Shown: positions 8,929-38,103 of the stretch, piece after piece | How the letters are laid out: each line of letters opens with the position of its first letter | How positions within the stretch are numbered: position 1 is the stretch's first letter | Source of the DNA: a virus | DNA: 64,000 nt | Strand: one strand, 5' to 3' | Virus record (IMG/VR): IMGVR_UViG_3300009506_000002 | Location: 1 to 64,000 of that record | The notes under the pieces: model-generated | Told to the model about the DNA's origin: nothing | The model's input: only the letters and a program-made list of their open reading frames with translations | Database searches by the model: none | Made by a program: the position numbers and the translations under genes

Positions 8929-11532
8929 TTAGCCAAAGAAATCCTCCAGTGATACGGTGTTCTCACTCTTCCAACCTACAGCGTCCAGGATGGCGCGCAA
9001 AGGCTGGAAAAATGCCTTGTCAAACTGTTCATCGTAGTCCACGTATTTCGCCAGTTCGAACTCTGGTGGGAGTGTCGTGTGAGACGGGAATGCGATGATA
9101 TTGTCATGCAGCGGGTTAGGCTGTTTCAGCGTTAGGAACTTGATCTTCTCGCCTTCCTGAATTGGTGCGTCTACTTTGTTGCCTGACTTCTTCAGCAGGT
9201 AATTGTAGTTGAGAGCACCCTTCACGTGTCTTGGTGTTCCTGTTCTGTAACGGGAATCATCGTTGACGCCGTACTTGCGCAAACCAGCCACAGAGCGAGG
9301 GAATGCCACGTCTGCAGGATCGAGCCTTGTGAACTCACCACGAGTCTTCTCAATGAAGTCAAGGACATGGTTGTTGTCGCCAGTCAGAACAAGTTTGATC
9401 GCATCCTTCAGCTTGTTACGGCAGAACTCTGGCGTTGATGACTTCACAACCTCAAGTCCCATGATCTTTGGCTTTGGCTCTGCATAGCGCACGCCTTCTG
9501 AGTCGTAGACCATCAGCGCATAGCGCTTCTTGGCAGTCCAGAAACCACGGGATGCGATTACTTCTCGCTCCATGACCATTGCGTTCCTGTAAGAGTGCAT
9601 GTACTCTGCCAGTTCCTCATAGCCCTTGGTGATAACTGGTTGAATCTTCTCCTTAACCACCTGATCGAGGAAGTCCACAATCTTGGTGTGGTTAGCAGGA
9701 TCCTTCGCGCGTTCACCAAACGCAACCTGCACAATGTCGTTGAGATTCACGTACACCGAGTCGGTATCGCAGTAAATCACGTAGTCCACGTTGCCCGTAC
9801 CAATGATCTTGTTGAGATACTTGTTGATGCGTGCCTGAATCCATTTGATTGAAAGCTGACCTGAAAGCGTCACGGCTTCCGCAACGCGCGGATCGAAGAA
9901 CTGGAAGTAGGCGTTCGCAATAGCGCCATAGCCAGAGTTCATCAGAATCTTGTAGGCAAGCTGCTTGTTATTCAGTGCCGCAATCTCCTTGGTCAACTCT
10001 GCGCGCTTTGCAGGATCCTTGGTGTTTTCCTTCTCCTGCTGCTTTGCCAGCATCAGCTTCTTGGTCTTCTTTCTGTCAGCGTACAGCATCTCCATGAGGC
10101 ATGAGAACATGCTCTGGTGATCCTTACGGTAGTAGGTCTCGTTTGCTGCCATGCAGCGTTCCATCTCGACCAGCTCTGACGTATCAGCGGTGCCCTCAAC
10201 ATAAGGAGTCAGTCTGCGCGCATTCTGCGCATCCTTAGAGGCCTTGTCGGGGTGGCTCAGGTACTGTTCAATATAGGACTCAACCGAACAGGTCAGTTCC
10301 TCATCCAGTGTGTCGGGACCCAGATTGTACTGCATGATCAGGTGAGGATACAGCGAGTTCAAGTCACAGGAGATAATCCAATCGTGTACGCTTGGATCAA
10401 TTTCCTTCACATACGCGCCAGCGATCTGCACCTTTTTGTTGCCAGATACATTCTTGACCTTGGTAAAGATGCTCTGATCATAGAACCAGTTGTAGATGAG
10501 CGCTTCCCATGTACGCACAGGAGAGAACGTATCTGTAAAGTTCTGGTGCGTCATGAAGGCGATGGTGTAGACCAGATACAGCAGGAGCATCTTTTCATCA
10601 ATGCGCTTGACCAGCTCCACGTCCTTGATGTTGTAATCAATGAACTTCTGGAAGTCCGTCTTGTAGAGACTGTGCAGCGTGCCAGCTTCTGAGTAGTCGA
10701 GCTTTCTTTCCTTCAACTCCACGTAGGCGATGTGATCCAGTGAGTAGGACTCCTGTGCCGAATAGGTGTACTTCTTGTACAGGTCAAGATAGTCAAGCGT
10801 TGAGATGCCTACAAATTCGTAGGACTGGTGGTCGCGTCCGTAGTTGTCACGGATGTTCTTGTTGTTGACCATGCCCCACGGAGACAAGCGCTTGACTTCT
10901 GCCGCGCCCAAAACGATCTCAATTCTGTTGACCAGATATGGGATATCGAACATCGCAATGTTCCAGCCAGTGATAACGTCAGGGCACTCCTTGTTCCAAA
11001 AGTCAAGGAACGCGCGCAGCATACCTGCTTCTGTCTGGAAGCCGTGATAGTTCACGTCCTCGCGCTGGTTGTCATACTCACCAACTGCCCAGACGTAGTA
11101 GCGGTCTGTCATGCTGTCATGCAGAGCAATTGAGATTACAGGATACTTGGCATCTTCTGGATAAGGGAATCCCTCATCGGATGCAACTTCGATGTCGAAA
11201 TTGAACAGGCGAATCTTGGTTACGTCATACGCGAATTCGCCAGGATACTTGTCTGTGATATATTGGGATGTCCAGTTTGAACTTCCGTAGATTTGGAAAC
11301 CAGATACATCTTTGTACTGGTCAATGAACTCCTTGGCATCAGCAACGGAGTCGATCTCGAGCTTTTCGAGATTGTTACCACGTTCGTCATGGAACTCTGT
11401 GTGGGTGTTGGAAGTGGGAACCAGAAGTGTAGGAGCAAATTCCTTGGCGCGGAAATTAGCGCGAGACCCATCACGGATCTCGCGCACTAGCAGAGTGTTG
11501 CCTCTACAATAAACGTTTGTGTAAAATCTCAT
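8929..11532 (-). CDS. 43: Family B DNA polymerase (T4 gp43)
   Basis: Exo 'FDIEV', 'DLNSLYP', 'KILMNSGYG', 'YCDTDS', 'KKRYAL'; C-terminal clamp-binding SLEDFFG. Confidence 0.98.
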   Translation of the reverse strand: MRFYTNVYCRGNTLLVREIRDGSRANFRAKEFAPTLLVPTSNTHTEFHDERGNNLEKLEIDSVADAKEFIDQYKDVSGFQIYGSSNWTSQYITDKYPGEFAYDVTKIRLFNFDIEVASDEGFPYPEDAKYPVISIALHDSMTDRYYVWAVGEYDNQREDVNYHGFQTEAGMLRAFLDFWNKECPDVITGWNIAMFDIPYLVNRIEIVLGAAEVKRLSPWGMVNNKNIRDNYGRDHQSYEFVGISTLDYLDLYKKYTYSAQESYSLDHIAYVELKERKLDYSEAGTLHSLYKTDFQKFIDYNIKDVELVKRIDEKMLLLYLVYTIAFMTHQNFTDTFSPVRTWEALIYNWFYDQSIFTKVKNVSGNKKVQIAGAYVKEIDPSVHDWIISCDLNSLYPHLIMQYNLGPDTLDEELTCSVESYIEQYLSHPDKASKDAQNARRLTPYVEGTADTSELVEMERCMAANETYYRKDHQSMFSCLMEMLYADRKKTKKLMLAKQQEKENTKDPAKRAELTKEIAALNNKQLAYKILMNSGYGAIANAYFQFFDPRVAEAVTLSGQLSIKWIQARINKYLNKIIGTGNVDYVIYCDTDSVYVNLNDIVQVAFGERAKDPANHTKIVDFLDQVVKEKIQPVITKGYEELAEYMHSYRNAMVMEREVIASRGFWTAKKRYALMVYDSEGVRYAEPKPKIMGLEVVKSSTPEFCRNKLKDAIKLVLTGDNNHVLDFIEKTRGEFTRLDPADVAFPRSVAGLRKYGVNDDSRYRTGTPRHVKGALNYNYLLKKSGNKVDAPIQEGEKIKFLTLKQPNPLHDNIIAFPSHTTLPPEFELAKYVDYDEQFDKAFFQPLRAILDAVGWKSENTVSLEDFFG

Positions 11533-12548
11533 TCGGTAGTTTCGTCCTCGTCCAATTCTACCACAAAGCCTTCGGGATTGCAAGCCTTCAGGCCGTAAAC
11601 GTCAGTGTAGATTTCCTCAAGCAGACCAAGCCAGAACTGACGGTCAACCTGATCAGGGTAAGCTGATACAGCAGAAAGCTTCTCAACTTCATCAACCAGA
11701 CGATCGAGTTCACCCTCAACCTCTTCCTTGAAGTTAAGCGAACCAGACTTGACCTTTTTCAGGAACTCGGTCTCGGCGAGTGGGTAAGTGAAACCACCCT
11801 CCTTGAAGATTGCGCGTGCCTGATAGCCAGCGCGCAACGCATGAGAGACCGCTTTCCAGTCAACGCCCACGCTGCTCTCGGCAGCTTCGGCACGCTTGCC
11901 ATAGGACTTGAGGATCTTGTTCAGACGATCTTCAAACTCCTGGAAGCTGATTGTGTTCTGGAACTTGCGGCCACAGACCACGTAGAAGTATTGAGTGCCA
12001 AGCTGCTCGTGCTCGGTGGTCTCAAACTCGGTGTGTTCTGTAACTGGCAGGAATTCCCAGTAATCAGCCAGCCGGTCTTCTTTGTCACGGATGTGTTCAC
12101 AAACCTTCAGGCACATCTTGACAGTTGCCAGACGGCGACCTTTTTCACCATACTTGTTGGCCTGCGTGCGGACGTAGCCCACAAAGGACTGCATACTCTT
12201 GGTGTATGCTCGTGCGCGCGCGGCCTGCAGCTTCTCCCAAACAGGAGAAGATGAAAGCAAGGCGCTCTCTGGTGCGTGCAGCATATCCAGGACGGTGGTG
12301 TTGCCCTTGATGACTTCATGCACGAATTTTGGCAGTGAGTAGAATACGCGGTCTACGTCATCTGCTGTGTTCTTGCTCTTACTGTCGCCAGTTGACAGGT
12401 TGACGCAATCAACCACCTGACCAGTTAGCACTTCTGTGAGAGATGGCATGTAGACGCCCATGAAGTCCAGGTCGGACTCAGGAGTTGCCAAACCATACAG
12501 GTGGCTACCGTACTGCATCTCACAAACTAATGTTCTTTCAAAACTCAT
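11529..12548 (-). CDS. Nucleotidyltransferase (T4 NrdC.11-like, Pol-beta superfamily)
   Basis: 'GSHLYGLATPESDLDFMG' and 'DWKAVSHALR' motifs. Confidence 0.85.
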   Translation of the reverse strand: MSFERTLVCEMQYGSHLYGLATPESDLDFMGVYMPSLTEVLTGQVVDCVNLSTGDSKSKNTADDVDRVFYSLPKFVHEVIKGNTTVLDMLHAPESALLSSSPVWEKLQAARARAYTKSMQSFVGYVRTQANKYGEKGRRLATVKMCLKVCEHIRDKEDRLADYWEFLPVTEHTEFETTEHEQLGTQYFYVVCGRKFQNTISFQEFEDRLNKILKSYGKRAEAAESSVGVDWKAVSHALRAGYQARAIFKEGGFTYPLAETEFLKKVKSGSLNFKEEVEGELDRLVDEVEKLSAVSAYPDQVDRQFWLGLLEEIYTDVYGLKACNPEGFVVELDEDETTE

Positions 12549-14903: not shown

Positions 14904-15813
14904 CTTTGATGCCCTCCATTGTTTCATATACCCAGTCATCGATCTCTGAGAAGACCTCATGCTGTCCTTCACTCATGTTGAGGAATGTTTCGAACATGCG
15001 CTCGTATGCCTTCTCAGGACACAAGCCAAGTTTCTCGCGGTGGATGCAAACCGGCAGCTCCAGCTCTGCAATGTCATCCTCGAGGCGCAATGTCTGCGCG
15101 CGCCGCTTGAAGAATGAGATGCTAATGTCATCAGGGTTACCAGTTTCCCAGTCTGCAATCAACATGTCGTCACCGCTCAAAAGGCAGCAGTAGTCGTCCA
15201 CATTGTATCTGCCCTTGCGGTTGATCTCACCATAGTCGGTGTATTTGATGTTCTCGAGAAGGTGGTGCTGCTCTTTGATTGACGAATCAAACGTACTGAA
15301 ACCCTTGATCGCATAGTAGATGTGCAGCAAGTGAGGCATCAGATCACGAGAGACCCCGCCGAAAGCTAGGTCTTTGTCAGTGAACCATGACCCAGGATGT
15401 GGGATGCGATTCTCATTCTGCCACGAAAGCACAATGCTATCTGCAGAGATGTTCTGCCATAGTGCCAAGCTGTCACGGAACAGATTGTTCTTGACCATCT
15501 GCAAACGGATGTTCGGATAGTGGCGCTTGAAGTTCTTCCACGAATAGTGATCGCGGAAACCTGGCTTGTCAACCACGATGAGGTCAGTCAGACACATATT
15601 GGCAACGTCATAGGCCACAGGCTCATGCAGGTAGTTTGGTGTGGCAATTACGACGATGTCGTAGTAGTCCCACTTGACATCGCTCACATACTTGTAGGTT
15701 GCCTCTTCCTTGTTTGGGTCAACCGTGTCAACATGGTATCCCATATCTGACAGGATGTAGGCGTACATCTGACCGATACCGAGACCGATGACCAATGCGT
15801 AACCTCTAACCAT
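14890..15813 (-). CDS. Gfo/Idh/MocA family NAD(P)-dependent oxidoreductase
   Basis: 'VIGLGIG', 'IATPNYLH', 'VDKP', 'GGVSRDLMPH'. Confidence 0.85.
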   Translation of the reverse strand: MVRGYALVIGLGIGQMYAYILSDMGYHVDTVDPNKEEATYKYVSDVKWDYYDIVVIATPNYLHEPVAYDVANMCLTDLIVVDKPGFRDHYSWKNFKRHYPNIRLQMVKNNLFRDSLALWQNISADSIVLSWQNENRIPHPGSWFTDKDLAFGGVSRDLMPHLLHIYYAIKGFSTFDSSIKEQHHLLENIKYTDYGEINRKGRYNVDDYCCLLSGDDMLIADWETGNPDDISISFFKRRAQTLRLEDDIAELELPVCIHREKLGLCPEKAYERMFETFLNMSEGQHEVFSEIDDWVYETMEGIKDAGC

Positions 15814-17002
15814 TGTCGTCACCACCAAAGAAGTTTTCTAGGGAGGACATTTCTGACTCTGTGTCCTTGGTTGTAAACTCACGGTCGATGATCTCATACG
15901 CTCCCTCAAGGTTCTGGAATGCCTTGTAAATGGTGCGCACGTTCTTCTTCACCTCTGCAGGGAATGAAGCATCAAACACCTCAGGCATGTCCATGTTGAT
16001 CAGGCTGTCGATGGTGTTCTTGTAGCGCATCATGAGATACAGGTTATGCTCAAGGCCAAGCATGTAGAAGTCACGCGGACTCTTCAGCCAAGCCTTCACG
16101 CTGCCAACGTCACGGCATACAGGACAGTCGCATGGCATACCTAGATCGTCAGGAACATTCTTGTAGTCATGACGGTTTGAGTAGTAAATCTGCTGGATGC
16201 CAGTGTAGCCTGGGAAGATGAAGTATCCACCAAAGGCCAAGTTGCGCTGGAAGTATGACGAGTCAAAGATGATCTGAACGTCAACACCCAGGCGATTGAG
16301 GTTCTTCTGAATGGCAGCGAAGTAGATCATCGCGTCCATACGTGACACGCCGAAGATGTGGTGATACTTGACGTTTGGCTTGTCGTATTCACCCTTCTTG
16401 AGCAGGAAGAAAATGCCTTTCAGTGTGGCCTTGAAGTTGCGGTTTGTACCACCGTGTGCCCAGCCATCAAACTCGAAGTCCGATACAGCCTTGTACCAAC
16501 GTTCCATTTCTGGCACGTTCTTTGCTGATAGCACATTTAGGATAGAACAGTCCGATTTCGATCTGTTTTCGTGATAGTAGCGAGCAGCCTCATGTGACAG
16601 GTCAAGGCAGCGCTGAATTTCACCCTCACTACCTGCATTGGTAACAGGGCGATCGAGGATCGGGAAGATGTTGCCATTGCGCTCTGACCAATCAAGGGCG
16701 ATCTTGTTGTTCCAGTTCTTTTCAGACAGCGCGCCAGTTGAAAGCTGATACCCGCCTGAGTCCACAAAGATGCAAGCATGTTCATCGATGCTCAAATCCT
16801 CACGGATGTTGGGATACTTCTTGGCATGATGCGCAGCAGAGAACAGAACATCGGGATGGTAGAAGTAGTTATCAGCGTCCTTGTTGAAGAAACGCAATGA
16901 TTTGTGGATGCAATCAGACGTGCTGATAATATCCTGATCTGACTTCTTCAGGTAGCTGGTAGTTGCGCAGCTAAGTGAAGCAAAATATCGGGTAGTTCTC
17001 AA
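15806..17002 (-). CDS. dpdA: TGT-like DNA-guanine transglycosylase (DpdA-like)
   Basis: 'FVDSGGYQL', 'ILD.P', 'HHIFGVS', 'FDSS', Zn motif 'CDCPVC...HN'; located in the que cluster; ends with SLENFF. Confidence 0.8.
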   Translation of the reverse strand: MRTTRYFASLSCATTSYLKKSDQDIISTSDCIHKSLRFFNKDADNYFYHPDVLFSAAHHAKKYPNIREDLSIDEHACIFVDSGGYQLSTGALSEKNWNNKIALDWSERNGNIFPILDRPVTNAGSEGEIQRCLDLSHEAARYYHENRSKSDCSILNVLSAKNVPEMERWYKAVSDFEFDGWAHGGTNRNFKATLKGIFFLLKKGEYDKPNVKYHHIFGVSRMDAMIYFAAIQKNLNRLGVDVQIIFDSSYFQRNLAFGGYFIFPGYTGIQQIYYSNRHDYKNVPDDLGMPCDCPVCRDVGSVKAWLKSPRDFYMLGLEHNLYLMMRYKNTIDSLINMDMPEVFDASFPAEVKKNVRTIYKAFQNLEGAYEIIDREFTTKDTESEMSSLENFFGGDDNG

Positions 17003-17004
17003 AC

Positions 17005-18108
17005 TTATCTCCTAGTGAGGACAGTTGCGTAGAATTTCGTGCCAGTGAAGAACTTCTCAAAGATCTCCTGAGCATTGCCCTCTAGCAGGTCAGTGTAGTG
17101 ATCATAACCGAGAACCATATTCTCAATGTGGTCAACCAGATCGTTCTTGTAGAACTTGTACAACTCAAAGTTCTCAGTCCACAGGGACGGATAGTTGAAA
17201 GTTGGGTCATACATTTCGGTATATGACAGGCGATTCGGCTGCAACGGAATTGCACCATGCAACATGCCTTCGAACTGTGCAATGCCAAGAGTCTCTTGCC
17301 ATGAAGCAGAGAAAACAACTTTGGCCTGTGCAAGTTTAGCATGATACTCGGTAGTTGTCAAGCCTTTTCCTTGGCAGATATACATCTCAATGCCTTTTTC
17401 AGCCAGTGCTTCTGAAAGGTCTTCGGCAATATCGTGCTGCTTTTCAGGTGACTTGCGGTGAGGGAAGATCACCATGTTTTCTTTGCGCGCCTGAATTGCA
17501 AACTCCTTGAGTGAGCCATTCTGCATGTACTCCATTGGGAAGCCACATACAACGCTCTTCCACGGCGTAATGCTCTCGCCAGCCTTACGCATGACATCCT
17601 CAAACATATTTCTGTGGAATTCGGTTGCAAAGATGTTGGTGTCATAGGCCTCGTACATTGAAGCCTCTACCTTGTATGACCACTTCTTGTTCGGGAAGGT
17701 CTGACCCAGGATGTCCCAACGGTCATAGCTGCCAGCGTGCCACACGCCTACAATGCAGATATCCACACCTGTCAGGTCGGCCATGTAGCGCAGTTGGTGA
17801 ACAGCAGGATTCCATGCGTCAGTGATCAGGAAGACGTCACCGTCACGCACTCCACCCGCAGCAAACCAAAGAGCAACCTGCTTCATCTGCTCTGACTTCC
17901 AGACGTTGGTGTCGATGAAGTTGAGGAACGCGCTGGTTCCAGAGTTGCTCTTCTTGTACTCGCCGTTGATGTTGTAGACTTCGAATGGCAGATCGTTTTC
18001 ATCAATGAAATCGATGAACTGCTTCTGCATGAATTGATGCCAGTGACCTGGGTAGCGGTTCTCGATTGGCTCAATTGGTAGGATGTAGAGTGAATTGCGT
18101 TCTGTCAT
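17005..18108 (-). CDS. Glycosyltransferase (GT-B fold)
   Basis: 'VIFPHRKSPEKQ' and 'SASWQETLGIAQFEG...P..P.RLSY.E' nucleotide-sugar-binding pattern. Confidence 0.8.
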   Translation of the reverse strand: MTERNSLYILPIEPIENRYPGHWHQFMQKQFIDFIDENDLPFEVYNINGEYKKSNSGTSAFLNFIDTNVWKSEQMKQVALWFAAGGVRDGDVFLITDAWNPAVHQLRYMADLTGVDICIVGVWHAGSYDRWDILGQTFPNKKWSYKVEASMYEAYDTNIFATEFHRNMFEDVMRKAGESITPWKSVVCGFPMEYMQNGSLKEFAIQARKENMVIFPHRKSPEKQHDIAEDLSEALAEKGIEMYICQGKGLTTTEYHAKLAQAKVVFSASWQETLGIAQFEGMLHGAIPLQPNRLSYTEMYDPTFNYPSLWTENFELYKFYKNDLVDHIENMVLGYDHYTDLLEGNAQEIFEKFFTGTKFYATVLTRR

Positions 18109-18109
18109 G

Positions 18110-18499
18110 TTAGTCCATCCACGGCATGTACAGCCCGATTGCGCCATTCTCGCCGTCCTCTGAAACTTCAACAGAGAAGCCTCCGCGCTTAGGGTAGTGC
18201 TCGAGGATGTAGTCAGCGATGTCGTCGCAGATCATTTCGCATGATTTGCCGTTGCATTGGTTTTGGTCTTTGAAAAGCGAAAGCAGTTCGCGCTTGAACA
18301 AGATGAACTCGATGTCCCTGTCATCATGGAACACTTGGAGCTCCACTTTCACGTGGAACATGTGCCTGTGAGGGTTGCGCAAGAACGCTACCTCATCTGG
18401 TGCATCTGCCCAGTAATGCTCACCTTCGAACTGAAATTTGACGAAAATTGACTTGCGTACAATCAGGTCTTCGTTTTTGATTCTATCTGGAATACTCAT
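18110..18499 (-). CDS. QueD-like T-fold protein (DpdL-like, putative CDG decarboxylase)
   Basis: 'FEGEHYW', LxxxHRHxF motif (LRNPHRHMF), 'SCEM', 'VSEDGENG'. Confidence 0.75.
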   Translation of the reverse strand: MSIPDRIKNEDLIVRKSIFVKFQFEGEHYWADAPDEVAFLRNPHRHMFHVKVELQVFHDDRDIEFILFKRELLSLFKDQNQCNGKSCEMICDDIADYILEHYPKRGGFSVEVSEDGENGAIGLYMPWMD

Positions 18500-18505
18500 A
18501 CGCGA

Positions 18506-18534
18506 ATTATACCACCTTCAGAAGAAATTGTCAA
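18506..18534 (-). promoter_or_regulatory. Perfect-consensus promoter TTGACA-N17-TATAAT; predicted leaderless mRNA
   Basis: The -10 ends 6 nt before the ATG at 18499. Confidence 0.8.
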
Positions 18535-19387
18535 GGGAAAATGCGCCCTCAAGTGGCACGACAACCTCGTTTGGTGCGCGCCAGTATCGGAAGATAAACT
18601 TGCCACGTTGTACATTTCCTTTCGAGTTAAGTACAACCAGATCATCCTTGTACTTCTCCGCGATGTAGTTCTTCCATTCCTGGACATCCTGCATACGGTC
18701 TTGATCAGAGAACAGAACGGAGTAGTCACCATTCGCCATCTCATTGAGGACAATGTTTTCACACTTGTAGAAGTGCAGGCCGTGTTTCAGCATCTGCATG
18801 GCGAACTCATCGTCCTCCATCTGGAACATGGCTTCATCGAAGAAGATAGTCACGCCATCATACTTCTTGAAATTGCGGATTGTGAAGAATGATCCTTTCA
18901 GGTGCATGTTGCGGCGGAATACGAAGTTATTGTCACGCAAGTCCTTCTCCGCTTTGTAGTCACCAGTGAAGGGCTCGTGGCGCGGGATGATCGGACGGAA
19001 GCCAGCTACAGACGATTTCTGTAACTCATCCCATACATTTTCGAGATTTGTAAAGAATGAGCTACCAAAAATGTGCTCGTAGAGGATCGAGTCATTGTCG
19101 ATGAAGTGAGCCACATCGTAATCCGAGTCATAGAAGTGGCGTAGCAGAGTGTTTCGACCCTTACCTGGGTGTTGTGGTACGTCAGAATGAATGAAGCAAA
19201 TCTTCTCAGATTCATAGAGGGAGATTTCATCTTCGTTATAGCCCTGAGAGTACACGAAAACCCTGTCAATTGATTCTTTCGAGCAGAGCCACTCCAACTG
19301 TCGTCTGTGGTACTCCAAGCGCTTAGAATAGAGCTTAGAGCTACGATCAGCTCCCAGGTATGATACGATGAATACAGCCTGCTTCAT
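18518..19387 (-). CDS. Glycosyltransferase-like protein (GT-A fold)
   Basis: 'GKGRN.LL', DxD 'FIDND', 'EDDEFA' motif; C-terminal SLDNFF. Confidence 0.65.
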   Translation of the reverse strand: MKQAVFIVSYLGADRSSKLYSKRLEYHRRQLEWLCSKESIDRVFVYSQGYNEDEISLYESEKICFIHSDVPQHPGKGRNTLLRHFYDSDYDVAHFIDNDSILYEHIFGSSFFTNLENVWDELQKSSVAGFRPIIPRHEPFTGDYKAEKDLRDNNFVFRRNMHLKGSFFTIRNFKKYDGVTIFFDEAMFQMEDDEFAMQMLKHGLHFYKCENIVLNEMANGDYSVLFSDQDRMQDVQEWKNYIAEKYKDDLVVLNSKGNVQRGKFIFRYWRAPNEVVVPLEGAFSLDNFF

Positions 19388-20537: not shown

Positions 20538-21407
20538 CTAAGTAGACCACGAATTTCCGAACAGATGACAGTGAAGACGCGGACTGAAGAAGTAGCCGTG
20601 GCGCATAGCCAGTTCTGCAACCCCACGCTCGGTTAGTTTGAGTCCTTCAATGGTTGCACCTTCCGGCATCAGGTAGATGTCTCCGATGAAATTGGTGTAG
20701 GTGGCTTCTACCTTTTCAACTTCCTCAATGTCCTGCTCGTCACGGATAACGAACTTGAGGTAAACATCAAAGTCCTCAGGGCTCCAGTCGTACAATTCAA
20801 CAACGTACTGGTCAACAGCTTCTGCCACAATTGCTTTCTGGAATGGTTCGCCAGAGATGCTCAATTTTGGCGAGACCGAGAACGTTACCTTGCCTCGTCC
20901 GTTGGTAGTATAATCTCGCAACGCCTGAACGAATTCTGGCAAGAGAGTCTGCGTACCATTTGTTTCGAACGTCAGGTCCATCTGGAAGTTGGTTCCTGCA
21001 AAGAACTCGACCCAGAACTTCTGATACTTCTTGAGCAATGGTTCGCCACCAGTGATAACGAGGTCTGGTGTATTCCACATATCCGCGTCGGTGAAGTAAC
21101 TCTGAATCCGGTTGTTAAGTTCGTCGACAGTGAAATCCTCTGAGAGATGGCGGTAACGCTTGCTCCATGCTGCGGAACTGTCACAACCGAAGTTGAAAAC
21201 TGGCAAGTCCTCAATGCTCTCAACCTGAGATACGTCGAATGTGTTATGGGGCATTTCCTCAATTGGAATCATATTGCCACGCGGCTGACCAAAGCCCGGA
21301 CAGTTCAGATTACAACCAAACACCCGGACAAAGACTGAGGGAACTCCAACCCGACGTCCTTCGCCCTGTACTGAATAGAATGCTTCTGTAATTTTAATCT
21401 TGCGCAT
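20538..21407 (-). CDS. queE: 7-carboxy-7-deazaguanine synthase (radical SAM)
   Basis: 'FYSVQGEG', C-x3-C...CD, 'ITGGEP', 'FETNGT', 'SVSPK', 'SPRLH'; own AAGGAG SD. Confidence 0.94.
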   Translation of the reverse strand: MRKIKITEAFYSVQGEGRRVGVPSVFVRVFGCNLNCPGFGQPRGNMIPIEEMPHNTFDVSQVESIEDLPVFNFGCDSSAAWSKRYRHLSEDFTVDELNNRIQSYFTDADMWNTPDLVITGGEPLLKKYQKFWVEFFAGTNFQMDLTFETNGTQTLLPEFVQALRDYTTNGRGKVTFSVSPKLSISGEPFQKAIVAEAVDQYVVELYDWSPEDFDVYLKFVIRDEQDIEEVEKVEATYTNFIGDIYLMPEGATIEGLKLTERGVAELAMRHGYFFSPRLHCHLFGNSWST

Positions 21408-22319
21408 TTGTTCTCCTTGCCTTTCAAGAAATAGTGCAACCTTCTTGTGGTGTTCCAGAACTTCACTGTCCAAAGAGTCACCTTTCATTCTGTTGCACAT
21501 TGCGCACAAAGGCTGGATGTTTGTGAAAGTGTATCCAAAATCGGAGTTCTGTGAAGGCTTAGAAAAAATGCGGTCAATAGACATAACATTATGCTGTCCG
21601 ATATTTGACTTAACCTTACGAGAAAGTTCCATTCCACAATGCTGGCACATAAGGAATCCGTCCTTCATAACATAATAATGCATCTTTCTATTGATTCCCT
21701 CAATAGAAAGTTCCATTGGAATATTACGCTCTTCTGCCGATGAAACAACCTTCTTGTAGAAATGTGCATCAATGAAGGTGGTTTCTTGAAATTTTCTATT
21801 GTCGAGAGATTCATCTGCGCCAGCGGTGCCGAACTCATTTGCGCCACGAGCCGAAGATTCATTCAGATGATGAACCTTAAATCCGAACACGTGGTCTGAA
21901 ATATCTTTGCTGTAAGAATCTGAATAGATAGCAGACAGCACACGACGAGGATTGCCACTTTCATCATCGTAGACAGTAACTCCTAGAATTTTGAAAACGT
22001 TTCCTCTCAGCTTTGAAACAAAGACACGTCCTGCAAATTTACTCTTTCCTGCGCGAGGATTTGACAACTTCTGGAGTGAAACATCTTCCGAACCCTTTAC
22101 AAGTTCCCACGATTTCTGAACAGATGAGCGTGTAATGGAACCAGTCTCTCCTGTGCCAATAACGGTATATTCTATACGAACATCACGAGATGGGCGACCC
22201 ACTCCCGTCACACGATCAACACGAATAAGGCGGTTGTGAGAACTGCGGTTGTCGATTTTTGGTGTGTAGATGTTTCCTTTATATTTGGAATTAATCTCAT
22301 AGCGTTCTTCTATGATAAT
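21408..22319 (-). mobile_element. HNH endonuclease-like ORF, in frame with queE without an intervening stop
   Basis: 'CQHCG...SIDRI...GYTFTNIQPLCAMCNRMK' His-Me finger pattern; more AT-rich than flanks; inserted between queD and queE. Confidence 0.7.
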
Positions 22320-23987: not shown

Positions 23988-24385
23988 CAGTGATTTGCTC
24001 CGATTGTGTACTTCGAGATCAGCTTCCATTGTGGCTTCTCCCAGTGTTTCAGCACAAACACCTTGACGCGATTCTCACCTTCGAGCACCTCGACAGGGTG
24101 AGTCAAGTTGACCAGTCCCCAGTCTTCGAGCAGCTTGGCGATGTGATTGCGACGGAAGATGTCTTCCTCAGAAATGTTTGCTGGCTTGCCATCCAGCGCG
24201 AACATCTCCTTGAAATGCACGACGTAATACTTGCCCTTCTTCTGCAGAATGTGGCACGACTGATAGAGCTCGTGCTTCTTGAAGTTGGCAATACCGACTC
24301 GCTCCAGTGTTTCCTTCACCTGCAGAAACGAGTCATCCTTTGGAAGTGTTACTTCCAACATATCATTTGGAGTCCATTCACTCAT
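23987..24385 (-). CDS. regA: Translational repressor RegA
   Basis: 'FLQVKETL.RVG', 'LYQSCHIL.K.GKYY.VHFKE.FALDG'. Confidence 0.96.
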   Translation of the reverse strand: MSEWTPNDMLEVTLPKDDSFLQVKETLERVGIANFKKHELYQSCHILQKKGKYYVVHFKEMFALDGKPANISEEDIFRRNHIAKLLEDWGLVNLTHPVEVLEGENRVKVFVLKHWEKPQWKLISKYTIGANH

Positions 24386-24834
24386 GTTTTTCCACCTTTA
24401 TTCATACGTTGTCTTAACGTTTCGATTTCTTCTGGCTTGAGGATTCGCAGTGCCTCGAGCGCTTTTGATTCGTTGTAACCATAGTAGTCCATGATCAGTT
24501 TCACGTCTGCTACATTGGTTTTCTTTGCCCATCCATACCGTTTGCCCTTGCGAATTGAGTGGATATAATAGTCATAGACCATCTGCTTTGTCATGGTTGG
24601 GCGACGGTTGACTTCATTGGCGTACAGGACGCAATCAAGATGCATAGACATTGCCCTGTTGATAATGAAAGCCTGAAAATCCTTCTCCGCTTCCGGATCC
24701 TGACGCAGCAAGTTAACCTTGTGCTGGGTCAGGTCTGGAAGGAAGTCCTTGAATAGGTCAAGGCGTTTGCGCTTTGCTGGCGCAACCTCTTCTGGCTCGA
24801 CGATGTCGTTGCCAAAAAGATCAATGCCCGACAT
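24382..24834 (-). CDS. 62: Clamp loader small subunit (gp62)
   Basis: 'FIINRAMS..DCVLYANE.N', 'YYGYN..KA.EAL.IL'; synteny. Confidence 0.92.
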   Translation of the reverse strand: MSGIDLFGNDIVEPEEVAPAKRKRLDLFKDFLPDLTQHKVNLLRQDPEAEKDFQAFIINRAMSMHLDCVLYANEVNRRPTMTKQMVYDYYIHSIRKGKRYGWAKKTNVADVKLIMDYYGYNESKALEALRILKPEEIETLRQRMNKGGKT

Positions 24835-25028: not shown

Positions 25029-25973
25029 TTATTCGAAATCACAATTCATCATAATTTCGACGCAGGCAGCAACGGTATTGATTTCTGCGTCGGCCACAAA
25101 GGCAGCCTTGTACTGTGCATCGTTCAGTATCAGGTCAGCCTGTGGAATGCTTGAGGGTTTGAGGTACTCGTAAGCGCCATCATATATCTTGCGGAAAATG
25201 GTGGCTGGGTCAAGGTCAGAGTTCTGAGCGACCCACTTGCGCATATCGGAGTACTTCTTGGCTTTCAGGAATCTCATCAGCTCGTCAATTGAAACGTCGC
25301 CAATGGTAGCCAGAAGGCCTGTGTCAATACTACCAGAAGTAGAGTACCTTTGCAACTCATTTATTGCACGTCGGAAGTCTGGGTAGAACTTCTTGACAAA
25401 TTCAGCCAGTACCTTTTCGTCATACGTCACGCCCTCTTCTTCAAGGATGTGGCGCAAGCGCGCCCAGAAGCCAGCCTGCATCTTCATCTTTTCATCTGGT
25501 GTGAATACGAATTCGATGACTGCACAGCGGCTATGAATTGGCTCAATCAGTTTGTTCTTGAAGTTGCAGGTCAGAATGAACTTGCAATTGCTCGAGAACT
25601 CTTCCATGAACGCGCGCAAAGCAGGCTGGAAGCTCTGAGCGTTTGAGTAGTCCGCCTCGTCAAGGATGACCACTTTCTCATTACCCATCATCGAGATGGA
25701 TGACGCGAATTGTTTGATCTTGTTGCGCAGTGTGTCGATGTTACCCTCAATAGAGGCGTTGATGAACAACACGTCTGCACCAATCTCAGAACAAAGCGCG
25801 CGAGCAATTGTGGTCTTACCAATGCCAGCGCCACCCGTCAGAAGCAAGTTCTGAGGAAGGCGCCCACCGGCTACGAATTGCTTGAATACGTCCTTGATTC
25901 GCGTTGGCAGAATACAATCTGAAATCGTCTGTGGGCGATATTTTTCAACCCACAAAAACTCTTCACGGCTCAT
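25029..25973 (-). CDS. 44: Clamp loader large subunit (gp44)
   Basis: 'LWVEKYRP', 'GGAGIGKTT', 'LDEAD', 'SRC'. Confidence 0.97.
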   Translation of the reverse strand: MSREEFLWVEKYRPQTISDCILPTRIKDVFKQFVAGGRLPQNLLLTGGAGIGKTTIARALCSEIGADVLFINASIEGNIDTLRNKIKQFASSISMMGNEKVVILDEADYSNAQSFQPALRAFMEEFSSNCKFILTCNFKNKLIEPIHSRCAVIEFVFTPDEKMKMQAGFWARLRHILEEEGVTYDEKVLAEFVKKFYPDFRRAINELQRYSTSGSIDTGLLATIGDVSIDELMRFLKAKKYSDMRKWVAQNSDLDPATIFRKIYDGAYEYLKPSSIPQADLILNDAQYKAAFVADAEINTVAACVEIMMNCDFE

Positions 25974-25983
25974 GATCTGCTCC

Positions 25984-26667
25984 TTAGGCTTCGTATGTAG
26001 AGCTCTTCTCGAGGGCAATGAAATACTCGGCGTTGTTCTCTTTGCCAACCCAGTGAGTGATCAGCTTTGAGGATACCTCGACGGTATAGTCGCCTGGCAG
26101 GACCTTCATGTTTTCAGCGCGGATGTAGAAGGTGAAGTTGGCATCGCCATCGTAGTCTCCTACATGCTCGGCATAGCCATTGGAGTCGTCGTTGCCCTTG
26201 TCGGTGACTCCGAGCATCAGCTTGTTACCCTCACGGCGAATGACCACATCTGGCAAGCCAAGCACGGATGCCGACTTGATGATACGATCGAACTGCTTCT
26301 GGGTGATGCTGAATGATACGTCGGGAGAAGGCATCTGAATCTGCTTCTCAGGCGGTGAGACGATGATTGATGGGTCGGCGTAGTTGTAGACCAGTGTTGC
26401 GTTGGTCTTGCCTGACGCATCAGAGATGGTGACGAAGTTCTCGCCAAAGTTGAATTCTGGTTCGTCGAACAGTGAGATTGCGGCGATGAATTCGTTGAGG
26501 TCATAAATGCCAAAGTCCTTCGGCAGCTTGTCGTCAATCTCGATATAGCCGAAAACGTTTTTGGCTACCGAGATGGTCTTCTGCGCAGTGCCCTTTCGGA
26601 ACAGCAGGCTCTGGTTGATTGTAGCAAAGTTCTTCAATGCTGCAATCGTGCTATCACTTAGATGCAT
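25984..26667 (-). CDS. 45: Sliding clamp (gp45)
   Basis: 'LS..T...LKNFATINQS', 'FGIYDLNEF', 'PGDY.V', 'YFIALE'. Confidence 0.96.
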   Translation of the reverse strand: MHLSDSTIAALKNFATINQSLLFRKGTAQKTISVAKNVFGYIEIDDKLPKDFGIYDLNEFIAAISLFDEPEFNFGENFVTISDASGKTNATLVYNYADPSIIVSPPEKQIQMPSPDVSFSITQKQFDRIIKSASVLGLPDVVIRREGNKLMLGVTDKGNDDSNGYAEHVGDYDGDANFTFYIRAENMKVLPGDYTVEVSSKLITHWVGKENNAEYFIALEKSSTYEA

Positions 26668-34309: not shown

Positions 34310-35383
34310 TTACTGGTCTCGTCCTAGCGCAACTGCTTCGGTGTAGAGCTCTTGTACGAGCTCTAGCATCTTATCTTCATTCAATTCCTCGTTTTCAGCA
34401 ATTGTTGAAACTGCTGCCTTCAGTACGGTCAAGGTGTCAAGTGCCTCAAAAGCCTCAACGTCTACGCCATCAACCAGCACAACATCGGACTCGACAATTG
34501 TGTAGTCGTGTGGCATTGCTGCCGCGATTTGGTCAAGGAACCAATCGTATTTCTTGGTATCCTTACGGTCGCGCACAATGACCTTGACGATTGCATCCTT
34601 CAGCTCTGTGAAGTCAAACTCGTCGTAGTCGACATCAGAGCAAAAGAATGCTTTGTGAAACATTCTATACGGATTCTCAACAAATGTCAAGTCTCCCGTT
34701 TCAGTGTCAAGGACATGGAAGCCGCGAGGGTCATCGTAGTCGCTCCAGGTGATTTCGTATGGCGTGCCAACGTAATCGATATTCTTCTGAGAAGATTTGG
34801 TGTGGTAGTGACCAGTGATAACCCTGTCGTAATGGCCGAACACGTTTGACTTGAGGCCACCATGTCCTGGGATGCCAGCGTACATATCGAAGCCCACAAT
34901 TTCAAAGTGGCCGACGCAGTAGTGGCTCTTGCTGTTCTTCATGAACTTGACAATCTCTTTCGAGTTGTACTTGTTGATCCATGGAATCATATCAATCGGG
35001 ACGCCATCAATGTCGATGGTTGTAGGCCCCGCGTCATGCACGTGGACGCAGTCACGCCACGCGAACAGCTCTTGCAGTGAGTTGATTTCGTTTGTGTAGC
35101 GATAGTAGATATCGTGATTGCCTGGGATGACGTGGAATTGCAAGCCATCAGCCAGCGTAGGCAGAACATCCATAAATCTGCGGTTGACTTCATGCAGCGT
35201 CTTGAAATTGACGCTCTTACGTCTGTCTATGAAGTCACCCGTCTGGATAACGTGGGTGATACCATGCTCTTTGATGTACGGGAAGACCACGCGCTCAAAG
35301 AACTTGAAGAAGTACTCTAGGAATACCTCAGAATCATTTCTCGCACCAAAATGGGTGTCGCCAATGATCACGACTTTAGCCAT
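34310..35383 (-). CDS. 47: Recombination nuclease gp47 (Mre11-like)
   Basis: 'GDTHFGAR', 'GNHD', 'GHFE', 'GHYH', 'W.D..D.RGFH'. Confidence 0.97.
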   Translation of the reverse strand: MAKVVIIGDTHFGARNDSEVFLEYFFKFFERVVFPYIKEHGITHVIQTGDFIDRRKSVNFKTLHEVNRRFMDVLPTLADGLQFHVIPGNHDIYYRYTNEINSLQELFAWRDCVHVHDAGPTTIDIDGVPIDMIPWINKYNSKEIVKFMKNSKSHYCVGHFEIVGFDMYAGIPGHGGLKSNVFGHYDRVITGHYHTKSSQKNIDYVGTPYEITWSDYDDPRGFHVLDTETGDLTFVENPYRMFHKAFFCSDVDYDEFDFTELKDAIVKVIVRDRKDTKKYDWFLDQIAAAMPHDYTIVESDVVLVDGVDVEAFEALDTLTVLKAAVSTIAENEELNEDKMLELVQELYTEAVALGRDQ

Positions 35384-35933
35384 CGCATACCTCGGTCAGA
35401 TCAACAGTGTCAGAGGTTGCCCTCTTCTTTCGTGGTGTTTGTTCCTCGTCCTTTTCATCCAAGTCGACTTCATAGAAGTCGCGCATGTAGTCAAGATATT
35501 GGTTGGAAAAATCGCAGTCATCATCGTGGGACTGGGTAGAAGCCTGCTGTAGCATTGCACCCGAGCGCTGCACGTAGCGCACCTTGGTGAAAAACAACTT
35601 CTTCTCTTTTTGGATACGGCGGATAAAAGCGAAGTAGCAAATCTGCGTGAAGTACCCGAACGGATTGTTGCTCTTGTCCGGGTCAAAGTTGTCAGCGTAC
35701 ATGACGCAATTCTCAATCGCGTCATCTACCATCTCATCCCTATAAGAATAGTTGATGAAATTAGGCTTGTATGAGAGTCGTTCGGCGATGAGCATGATTT
35801 TCTTGCCAATTGCGTCAGATAATCTTGGCTTTGGCTTACCAGCAGCTTCTGCCTCTTTCGCTAGGCGCTTGTATTCGACGAAATCAGAGAGGAACTCTTT
35901 GTTCGAAACGTAATGCGTTTTCTTCTTGCTCAT
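35376..35933 (-). CDS. 55: Late transcription sigma factor gp55
   Basis: 'HYVSNKEF', 'PNFINYSYRDEM', 'NPFGYFTQI...AF.RRI.KEK'. Confidence 0.96.
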   Translation of the reverse strand: MSKKKTHYVSNKEFLSDFVEYKRLAKEAEAAGKPKPRLSDAIGKKIMLIAERLSYKPNFINYSYRDEMVDDAIENCVMYADNFDPDKSNNPFGYFTQICYFAFIRRIQKEKKLFFTKVRYVQRSGAMLQQASTQSHDDDCDFSNQYLDYMRDFYEVDLDEKDEEQTPRKKRATSDTVDLTEVCDG

Positions 35934-36606: not shown

Positions 36607-38103
36607 CTATATTTTGATTCGCTTCAAAGAGAATTCAAACTGCTCTCTGTTGTAGTAGTCAACGCGCACCAAGAAGTGCTCCATCGCATAGTTCTTATGT
36701 CTCTTCCAAGTCAAATCATCAGCAATATCGTACAGGATGAATGAATCCTTTTCTGAATTGATTCTCAAGCCGCGGCCAATCGACTGGAGCGTGCGGATTT
36801 TTGACTTCGATGGTGATGCAAAGATGCCCCAGTGCAGGTTCTTGATTGAAACGCCAGTAGAGAACGTTCCAAACGAAGCTACAATGATCGAGTCCTTTTC
36901 CTTTTCGACCCAATGACGGATTTGTTCGCGCTGGTCAGCAGGTACTGAACCGTCAACGAAGTGAACAGTGCGGTTAGGGTCAATATCTTTGATCCGCTTG
37001 TAGATATCCTTACCATGCTCGATGTTGTTGAACAGGATCAGTCCGTTCTGAGTTTGAGCCAGAGCCAGTTTCGCAATGAAGTCTGTTCGACGCGGGTGTT
37101 TGATCAGCCACTTAACCTCATCTTGATACTTGGCCTTCTTCATGAACTGCTTTTCCTCATCCGTGTAGATGAGAGACAGCGCCTTGATATTCAAACGCGC
37201 TACCTTCTTTCTGTCCATCAATTCCTTGGTTGTGATGGTTCTCTTGACAGGGCCGAGCAATCCCTCGATCACAAGGCGAGAGGTCTTTGAATCGTCAAGC
37301 GTACCAGTGAGTCCGATCTTATAAGGGCATTCAGTCATCTTCTCACAGATTCCGCGCAGCGATTCAGATGTTGCCAAGTGAACCTCGTCAATCATCAGGG
37401 TGCCGAACTTCTCAAAGTAGCCCTTGTGCTTACGGAAAATAGACTGCCATGTTGAAACGTAGATACCGCACTCAGAATCCTTTTCGCGGCCACCCATGAT
37501 CATGTGAACCTCGTCATCTGCTGTCCAGTGGACGTGAGATGAGTAGTCCGCCATGTCACCTGCCATCTGCGCAACCAGTCCGGTTGTTGGCACGACGACA
37601 AGTACCTTTTTGCCTGGGCGAGTGAGACGCAGCCAGCGCGCCAGCGCATAGATCATCAGAGACTTACCCGAAGAAGTAGGAGACAGCAAGATGCATCGCT
37701 TGTATTTGAGCGCGCACCAGATGCCGAAGAGCTGGTAGTCATGTGCCTCAATCTTTTCGCCATTTGAGTGGACGTTGAGAGTTTCAAGGAACTTGACCAC
37801 ATCCTCAGGCTTGACGTTTGTTTGTGGCATAACGTCATCATCGATGTGGATGCTGTATTTGTGTTGCTCCGCGAACTGCTTGACGTATGAAGTCAATCCA
37901 GAGTAGAGCTCGCGATTGCGAATTGAGAACAGGTGGATCTTACCATCCCACATCTTGTTCTTGAACTTTGGCATGAAGCGGTAGCCAGGAACGAAGAATG
38001 TGAAGAACTCGTCCAGTGAGAATGCAATGTGTAGCTCGCACTCAATCCAAACGTAGACGTCGTCAACCCTATGTACGGTGATATCTGCTTTTCTTTCAGC
38101 CAT
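36607..38103 (-). CDS. uvsW: RNA-DNA/DNA-DNA helicase UvsW
   Basis: 'WDGKI.LF', 'SPTSSGKS', 'DEVH', 'GLTGT', 'FSTGVSI', 'LQSIGRGLR'. Confidence 0.96.
   Translation of the reverse strand: MAERKADITVHRVDDVYVWIECELHIAFSLDEFFTFFVPGYRFMPKFKNKMWDGKIHLFSIRNRELYSGLTSYVKQFAEQHKYSIHIDDDVMPQTNVKPEDVVKFLETLNVHSNGEKIEAHDYQLFGIWCALKYKRCILLSPTSSGKSLMIYALARWLRLTRPGKKVLVVVPTTGLVAQMAGDMADYSSHVHWTADDEVHMIMGGREKDSECGIYVSTWQSIFRKHKGYFEKFGTLMIDEVHLATSESLRGICEKMTECPYKIGLTGTLDDSKTSRLVIEGLLGPVKRTITTKELMDRKKVARLNIKALSLIYTDEEKQFMKKAKYQDEVKWLIKHPRRTDFIAKLALAQTQNGLILFNNIEHGKDIYKRIKDIDPNRTVHFVDGSVPADQREQIRHWVEKEKDSIIVASFGTFSTGVSIKNLHWGIFASPSKSKIRTLQSIGRGLRINSEKDSFILYDIADDLTWKRHKNYAMEHFLVRVDYYNREQFEFSLKRIKI

Follow-up and report, generated by a model that had tools for sequence, protein, structure and literature searches.

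Polymerase-type C-terminal peptides on a transglycosylase and a GT-A enzyme of a T4-like phage: candidate tethers to the sliding clamp

Why would two enzymes of unrelated fold end in the C-terminal peptide of their phage's DNA polymerase? The question is raised by a 64,000-nucleotide stretch of viral DNA (hereafter the window), the first 64 kb of the 142,377-bp IMG/VR virus record IMGVR_UViG_3300009506_000002, which carries direct terminal repeats. The window codes for a family-B DNA polymerase (gp43), a DpdA-like transglycosylase of the TGT superfamily, and an enzyme of the GT-A glycosyltransferase fold. The original prediction held that all three proteins end in one sliding-clamp-binding peptide and that both modification enzymes ride on the gp45 clamp. 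All three C-termini read exactly as it had stated: gp43 ends ...TVSLEDFFG, the transglycosylase ...SSLENFFGGDDNG, and the GT-A protein ...EGAFSLDNFF. The similarity of these tails is real and far beyond chance, and docking on gp45 is its probable meaning.

Polymerase-like tails and their conservation

The motifs SLEDFF, SLENFF and SLDNFF lie 1, 6 and 0 residues from the C-terminus of the polymerase, the transglycosylase and the GT-A protein, respectively. Across all open reading frames (ORFs) of at least 40 amino acids (aa) in the whole 142,377-bp genome, the pattern [ST]L[DE]xFF occurs four times, and three of the four are these C-termini. From residue frequencies we roughly estimate a chance rate for S-L-[DE]-x-F-F of ~1e-6 per position, or ~2e-3 hits at the ends of ~200 proteins. 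The C-termini of 231 ORF calls were also ranked by similarity to the polymerase tail; the transglycosylase came first (score 28) and the GT-A protein second (23), with the 95th percentile at 11. Third, at 18, was a baseplate-hub protein ending GLDSFFV.

The fourth match to the pattern is internal and covers residues 29–34 of UvsW, within its Pfam N-terminal domain. Residues 27–34 of UvsW read AFSLDEFF, nearly the AFSLDNFF of the GT-A tail. Inside the folded UvsW_N domain, this segment probably has a structural role.

The three motifs are spelled with different codons: TCA CTG GAG GAT TTC TTT in gp43, TCC CTA GAA AAC TTC TTT in the transglycosylase, and TCC CTT GAC AAT TTC TTC in the GT-A gene. 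The DNA downstream of them is unrelated. A DNA repeat at gene ends is thereby ruled out, and the similarity must have been selected at the level of the peptide.

Structure models place both tails outside the catalytic domains. In the AlphaFold2 (AF2) model of the transglycosylase, the fold ends at about residue 375–380, residues 381–398 have a predicted local distance difference test score (pLDDT) below 50, and a single helical turn covers the motif at residues 388–392. The last strand of the GT-A model ends at residue 278, its final block has a pLDDT of ~71, and a short helical turn spans residues 285–288. About 12 GT-A homologs stop no more than 3 residues after a conserved, domain-closing IPK segment and have no tail at all. 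With a fold that ends at residue 278 and homologs that dispense with the tail, the GT-A tail is an appendage outside the fold. In both models, then, the tail is predicted to extend beyond the folded domain and is the stretch of lowest confidence.

One tail-less GT-A homolog lies on viral contig L102 (contigs are given by such L numbers), in a cluster of FolE, GT-A, QueC, an unknown gene and PolB. The polymerase of that contig ends QTKLF, resembling the bacterial beta-clamp motif.

Conservation of the motif in homologs, which the original prediction had proposed as a check, was borne out. The transglycosylase tail is kept down to ~27% identity, with drift in the linker that precedes it. Among 123 transglycosylase homologs reaching that distance, most end in [ST]-L-[ED]-x-F-F, optionally followed by G or acidic residues. 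In 48 transglycosylase sequences anchored by the aromatic pair at their end, the columns of the motif hold S/T in 35, L in 41, the first F in 41 and the second in 37. The ten linker columns carry 0.5–1.1 bits each, and the S/T, L, E/D and F-F positions 1.5–3.2 bits. A divergent linker, flexible in the AF2 model, thus connects the folded domain to a constrained end. Two phages with transglycosylases at 81% identity differ in the linkers and have kept the motifs (transglycosylase SSLESFFGE, GT-A protein AFSLDNFF, polymerase STLEIFFG).

The GT-A tail is conserved as well. In GT-A homologs of 79%, 62% and 31% identity, the tail reads SLDNFF, ALDKFF and SIDNFL. A terminal hydrophobic-aromatic pair is found in 52% of 151 GT-A representatives, compared with 9% of a background set of 1,146 proteins (odds ratio 10).

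The tails also change together with the polymerase. The viral contigs scanned gave 80 loci with the transglycosylase, and in 50 of them the C-terminus of gp43 was present on the fetched stretch. Most of these polymerases end SLE(S/D)FF(G), and so do most of the cognate transglycosylases. A drifted polymerase tail is accompanied by an equally drifted one on the transglycosylase of the same contig: DIEDMFG with SIEDMFG (L077), NANKFFKF with NFNKFFKF (L081), LVDSYF with AVENYF (L078), STLEGFF with NSLEGFF (L076), and DIDEFF with EMNEFF (L074), the polymerase being named first. The pairs show at least three or four different variants in which both tails changed in concert. Over 33 dereplicated pairs, the same-contig tail score averaged 14.4, as against 10.2 +/- 0.9 when the pairs were shuffled, and not one of the 20,000 shuffles scored as high; this permutation test ignores shared ancestry among homologs.

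Polymerase-like tails are concentrated on few proteins. Counted on the dereplicated transglycosylase loci, with a score of at least 18 as the threshold, 16 of the 37 transglycosylase homologs and 4 of the 687 remaining proteins end in one (odds ratio 130; Fisher p 2e-19, likewise computed as if homologs shared no ancestry). Those four are a GT2-like protein of 254 aa (L077:5894-6658) whose end, NIEDMFGD, matches the polymerase and transglycosylase tails of its contig; an N6/N4 DNA methylase (Pfam E 2e-45) with the end NISDSYF; an RNase H with the end VYDNYF; and a 96-aa protein of unknown function. The methylase and the RNase H are both coded on L078 (3933-4700 and 14733-15638), a distant relative. 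On L015, a gp33 homolog ends TSLTTFMEGL, the transglycosylase TSLDGWT and the GT-A protein TSIDNFL. We considered whether the GT2-like protein of L077 belongs to the GT-A family of the window; an hhalign probability of 3% sets it apart as a separate family. By their predicted functions, at least four families of DNA-acting enzymes carry the polymerase tail of their own phage.

Proposed clamp docking and its alternatives

We consider it probable that the transglycosylase and GT-A tails are gp45-docking peptides of the polymerase-tail type, which would hold both enzymes at or just behind the replication fork. This clamp-docking reading, put forward in the original prediction, is supported as the best explanation of the tails, and all tests run agree with it. 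Its premise from T4 is also sound: T4 gp43 ends SLDFLFG and gp55 ends SLDFLYEAND, and the hydrophobic-acidic C-termini of gp43, gp55 and gp33 bind gp45 and are interchangeable (PMC2988020). The gp55 epitope sits on a divergent 17-residue linker and tolerates substitutions and flexible insertions (PMC2988020). By analogy, the polymerase of this phage most likely holds its clamp through its own C-terminal peptide, and SLENFF and SLDNFF match the hydrophobic-acidic SLEDFF of that cognate polymerase, as the co-varying tails do on other contigs. A gp45-type clamp and its loader are coded in the same genome as the tailed enzymes (Pfam gp45-slide_C and Phage_clamp_A; PHROG 225), and the genes of these enzymes sit within the replication module. 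Since the transglycosylase bears a clamp-type tail and is coded in that module, its substrate would be DNA rather than tRNA. For the cluster as a whole, the tails likewise favor DNA over tRNA or the cell surface.

From the tails we infer gp45 binding, DNA as the substrate and the timing of modification, and the following sequence of events is proposed. Each enzyme would consist of a compact catalytic domain, a short flexible linker and a docking peptide. The gp44/62 loader would place the trimeric gp45 ring on phage DNA, and the peptide would bind the hydrophobic patch of gp45 or the subunit interface. With three sites per ring, the polymerase and the modification enzymes could be held together or successively, as on a toolbelt. 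The base-exchanging and sugar-adding enzymes would be kept on the newly made duplex, and modification would be co-replicative or immediately post-replicative.

Several observations weigh against this reading, besides the shared ancestry that the two statistical tests ignore. The phage's own gp55 ends DTVDLTEVCDG and its gp33 ends TTAELPI, both without a polymerase-type motif. In T4, gp55 and gp33 share a polymerase-like tail, whereas neither copies the polymerase tail here; what ties the motif to the clamp in this phage is therefore the homology between its polymerase tail and the tails of T4 and RB69. Among the transglycosylases, an abundant marine clade ends ANALDV or PSVFDL, and its polymerase ends SLESFF or SLEDFFGPVN. 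Some further transglycosylase clades end GLGL or GLGI. The baseplate-hub protein, whose full ending TGLDSFFV is the sole further polymerase-like C-terminus in the genome, indicates that a loose match can also arise where a protein has no role on DNA. Finally, in T4 itself the share of alpha-glucosylation is reported to be set by expression level, with interaction with gp45 not its main determinant (PMC13216743).

The alternative that survives best is that the shared tail docks elsewhere, on gp32, a helicase loader, the clamp loader or a replication-compartment scaffold, or that it is a shared sorting or turnover signal. The evidence is at the level of sequence, and gp55 and gp33, lacking the motif, give no independent tie between motif and gp45 inside this genome. 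The polymerase tail is nevertheless equivalent in position and chemistry to the tails of T4 and RB69 gp43, whose partner is gp45; gp45 is coded in this genome; and the RNase H and the gp33 homolog of related contigs bear similar tails. We therefore judge a partner other than gp45 to be unlikely.

Less probable again, and in our view improbable, is that the tail is intrinsic to each enzyme, as a C-terminal lid or an oligomerization strand, and merely resembles the polymerase's. The short helical turns that AF2 builds in both tails, and the intermediate pLDDT of the GT-A tail, would fit such an element. An intrinsic element does not account for the same peptide on three or more unrelated folds, for the variable linker that precedes it, for the GT-A homologs that end just past IPK, or for a tail that tracks lineage-specific variants of the polymerase. 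Chance likeness of short acidic-hydrophobic C-termini, for which the brevity of the motif, the baseplate-hub protein and the internal UvsW segment might speak, is very improbable given that three of four exact matches in 142 kb are C-terminal, that the tail is conserved to ~27% identity and co-varies with the polymerase, and that the enrichment has an odds ratio of 130.

If clamp docking is the right reading, clamp-tethered modification probably extends to several enzyme families of environmental T4-like phages. Whether the polymerase-tail copy is, more broadly, a portable address label that T4-like phages have repeatedly attached to unrelated DNA-modifying enzymes is a proposition on which we stand evenly divided. 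The observed carriers that bear on it are the TGT-like transglycosylase, two GT-A-like families and the N6/N4 methylase. Were it true, hypermodification would be a function of the replisome toolbelt, and the tail would predict, from sequence alone, an action on DNA for phage proteins of unknown function. It would also offer an explanation for the very high occupancy attainable by post-replicative base exchange, and such enzymes may need their cognate clamp in heterologous assays.

7-Deazaguanine and sugar hypermodifications shield phage DNA from restriction and CRISPR. A clamp tether offers a concrete, testable answer to how base exchange could be dense on a rapidly replicating genome. Tails of this kind would extend the known list of gp45 ligands. 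They suggest a practical rule for spotting DNA-acting enzymes in phage dark matter, namely to seek C-termini that copy the cognate polymerase tail, and they suggest co-expressing the cognate clamp and loader when such pathways are reconstituted. None of the libraries searched places the enzymes of this cluster in a named DNA-modification family.

The two enzymes and the genes around them

Judged by its genes, the source phage is T4-like. Its family-B polymerase shares ~46% identity with cyanophage gp43 across 99% of its length, and the genome codes for gp45, gp44, gp62, RegA, gp46/47, gp55, UvsW, UvsY and gp32. A megablast search of the region against the phage collection returned no close cultured relative. 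The features discussed are collected in Table 1.

Table 1. Positions of the tailed enzymes, the clamp apparatus and other genes discussed, in window coordinates unless marked as genome coordinates
Feature	Position	Strand	C-terminal tail	Basis or remark
gp43 family-B DNA polymerase	8929..11583	-	SLEDFFG, coded at 8932-8952	Pfam DNA_pol_B_exo1 and DNA_pol_B
TGT-superfamily (DpdA-like) transglycosylase, 398 aa	15806..17002	-	SLENFF, coded at 15827-15844	Pfam TGT, E 9e-8
GT-B-like protein	17005..18171	-	no clamp-type tail	between the GT-A and transglycosylase genes, immediately upstream of the latter
GT-A-fold enzyme with DxD, 289 aa	18518..19387	-	SLDNFF, coded at 18521-18538	AF2/Foldseek fold
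QueE ORF	20538-22211	-		PHROGs 1035 and 5718 (N-terminal region)
gp62 clamp-loader small subunit	24382..24834	-		Pfam Phage_clamp_A, PHROG 225
gp44 clamp-loader large subunit	25029..26048	-		AAA+ clamp-loader sequence features
gp45 sliding clamp, proposed docking partner	25984..26667	-		Pfam gp45-slide_C, E 1.9e-15
gp55	35376-35933	-	no polymerase-type motif	
UvsW	36607-38103	-		internal motif match
Baseplate-hub protein	genome 76517-77242 (L002:12517-13242)	+	TGLDSFFV	Pfam T4_baseplate, E 6e-51
gp33	genome 80993-81229	-	no polymerase-type motif	

The transglycosylase is assigned by both sequence profile and predicted fold. A profile of 57 homologs matches ArcTGT and TGT, the archaeosine and queuine tRNA-guanine transglycosylases, in the PDB; the AF2 model (pLDDT 93.4) has ArcTGT/TGT as its best Foldseek matches, with E 3e-11 to 1iq8. 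Searches of the PDB with the single sequence of either this enzyme or the GT-A protein gave no direct matches. No variation is seen at D81-S82-G83-G84 and H319, and hardly any at C291, C293 and C296. Across the family, little or no variation affects the DSGG motif with the catalytic Asp, an LD.P motif or the CxCxxC...H zinc site, and the TIM-barrel of the TGT fold is present together with this zinc site and catalytic residue.

Its relatives in cultured phages are remote. With three members of the family as tblastn queries, the phage collection yielded only hypothetical proteins of jumbo phages at ~25% identity or less, the nearest being ~25% identical proteins of PA5oct-like jumbo phages. We considered a link to DpdA3, the subfamily credited with complete replacement of G, and dropped it. 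The family profile found nothing in phiST and CP220, which carry DpdA3 (DpdA1, DpdA2 and DpdA4 were not compared directly), and the DpdA3 of phiST ends ...YLRELLKK, without a clamp-type tail. With the phiST DpdA3 protein as query, no homolog was detected in CP220. Its sequence thus marks the transglycosylase as a DpdA-like enzyme of a divergent clade that has no close relative in cultured phages.

Clustered with the gene are FolE, two QueD-like genes and a QueE fused to an HNH domain. Membership in the TGT superfamily, together with a place beside FolE, QueD and QueE in a phage genome, makes insertion of a 7-deazaguanine derivative into DNA the probable activity of the enzyme. FolE, QueD and QueE are present, yet no QueC (PF06508) could be detected across the whole genome; without QueC from the host, a phage-coded pathway would therefore end at 7-carboxy-7-deazaguanine. 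In the QueE ORF, an HNH or endonuclease VII-like region is fused in frame at the N-terminus.

Between the two tailed enzymes lies the GT-B-like gene. It is the middle member of a conserved trio (17005-18499 plus the transglycosylase gene) that runs, in order, QueD/PTPS-like protein (129 aa, PHROG 17812), GT-B-like protein, transglycosylase. The trio is kept in L006, L012, L013 and L015, down to ~28% transglycosylase identity; the syntenic GT-B-like homologs stand directly upstream of the transglycosylase there and give a faint match to Pfam Glycos_transf_1.

For the GT-A protein itself, neither Pfam, PHROG nor NCBIfam gave a match, and a library of 1.84 billion proteins held 294 homologs. A scan of viral contigs with the single GT-A protein found no relatives. 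The GT-A label given in the original prediction is confirmed by the fold: the AF2 model has a pLDDT of 95.2, and its Foldseek matches are the GT-A enzymes GalNAc-T2, K4CP, TarP, TarS and AvpGT (E 2e-8 to 1e-6). The DxD motif of GT-A glycosyltransferases is present. In 121 homologs, D97 is invariant and D99 conserved in at least 90%, within the consensus F.DND..LY.

The listed TTG start of gp44 overlaps gp45, and the real start probably lies further downstream. The syntenic gp44 genes in L008, L010 and L012 match Pfam AAA, DNA_pol3_delta2 and Gp44_lid. In the marine clade of transglycosylases, the gene cluster lies between gp44 and gp62; the marine contigs L008 and L010 carry a whole 7-deazaguanine cluster (QueE-like, PRTase, PTPS, FolE, QueC, transglycosylase) as an insertion between genes 44 and 62, and DNA methylase genes lie next to it. 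On L012 (14399-18395) the polymerase gene is split into parts of 510 aa and 352 aa, with an opposite-strand ORF of 333 aa and small ORFs between them, which suggests an inserted mobile element.

Comparison with known systems

The closest parallels are the clamp-binding tails of T4 and RB69 gp43, gp55 and gp33. Like them, the tails described here sit at the extreme C-terminus and consist of S/T-L-D/E followed by an aromatic pair. In both cases a divergent flexible linker precedes the peptide, and the optional trailing G or acidic residues found here can be compared with SLDFLYEAND of T4 gp55. The consensus differs, being SL(D/E)xFF here and SLDFL(F/Y) in T4. So do the carriers: in T4 and RB69 they are the polymerase and late-transcription factors, and here they include candidate DNA-modifying enzymes.

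A phage DNA-glycosylating enzyme on the clamp, as proposed here for the GT-A protein, has a precedent in T4 alpha-glucosyltransferase. This enzyme is reported to co-purify with gp45 (Sommer et al. 2004, confirmed in PMC13216743), and its modification has been proposed to be concomitant with replication (PMC13216743). It ends ...KEQFDIITK, without a polymerase-type tail. Its fold family differs from those of the GT-A protein and the transglycosylase described here, and its mode of binding may be different.

With the described phage DpdA enzymes (DpdA1-4 and bDpdA; PMC6884629, PMC10516641), the transglycosylase of the window shares the TGT superfamily and a phage context of FolE, QueD and QueE. 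It differs from them as a divergent clade, and in having a tail of a kind that the DpdA3 of phiST lacks. The 2023 paper on DpdA subfamilies makes no mention of a clamp (PMC10516641). Of the two papers in the searched library that name both DpdA and the sliding clamp, neither deals with such a link, as far as titles and abstracts tell. DNA-modifying enzymes on a clamp are thus a known kind, and for transglycosylases of the 7-deazaguanine type the arrangement is apparently unreported.

Outside T4-like phages, short motifs tether DNA-modifying and repair enzymes to other clamps: DNMT1 and further PIP-box proteins to PCNA, and proteins with QL[SD]LF motifs to the bacterial beta-clamp. For enzymes of the DNMT1 type, clamp tethering couples an epigenetic mark to the fork. 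These systems use clamps of another family and a different motif grammar, and the PIP box of DNMT1 is N-terminal, whereas the motif described here copies the C-terminus of the cognate polymerase.

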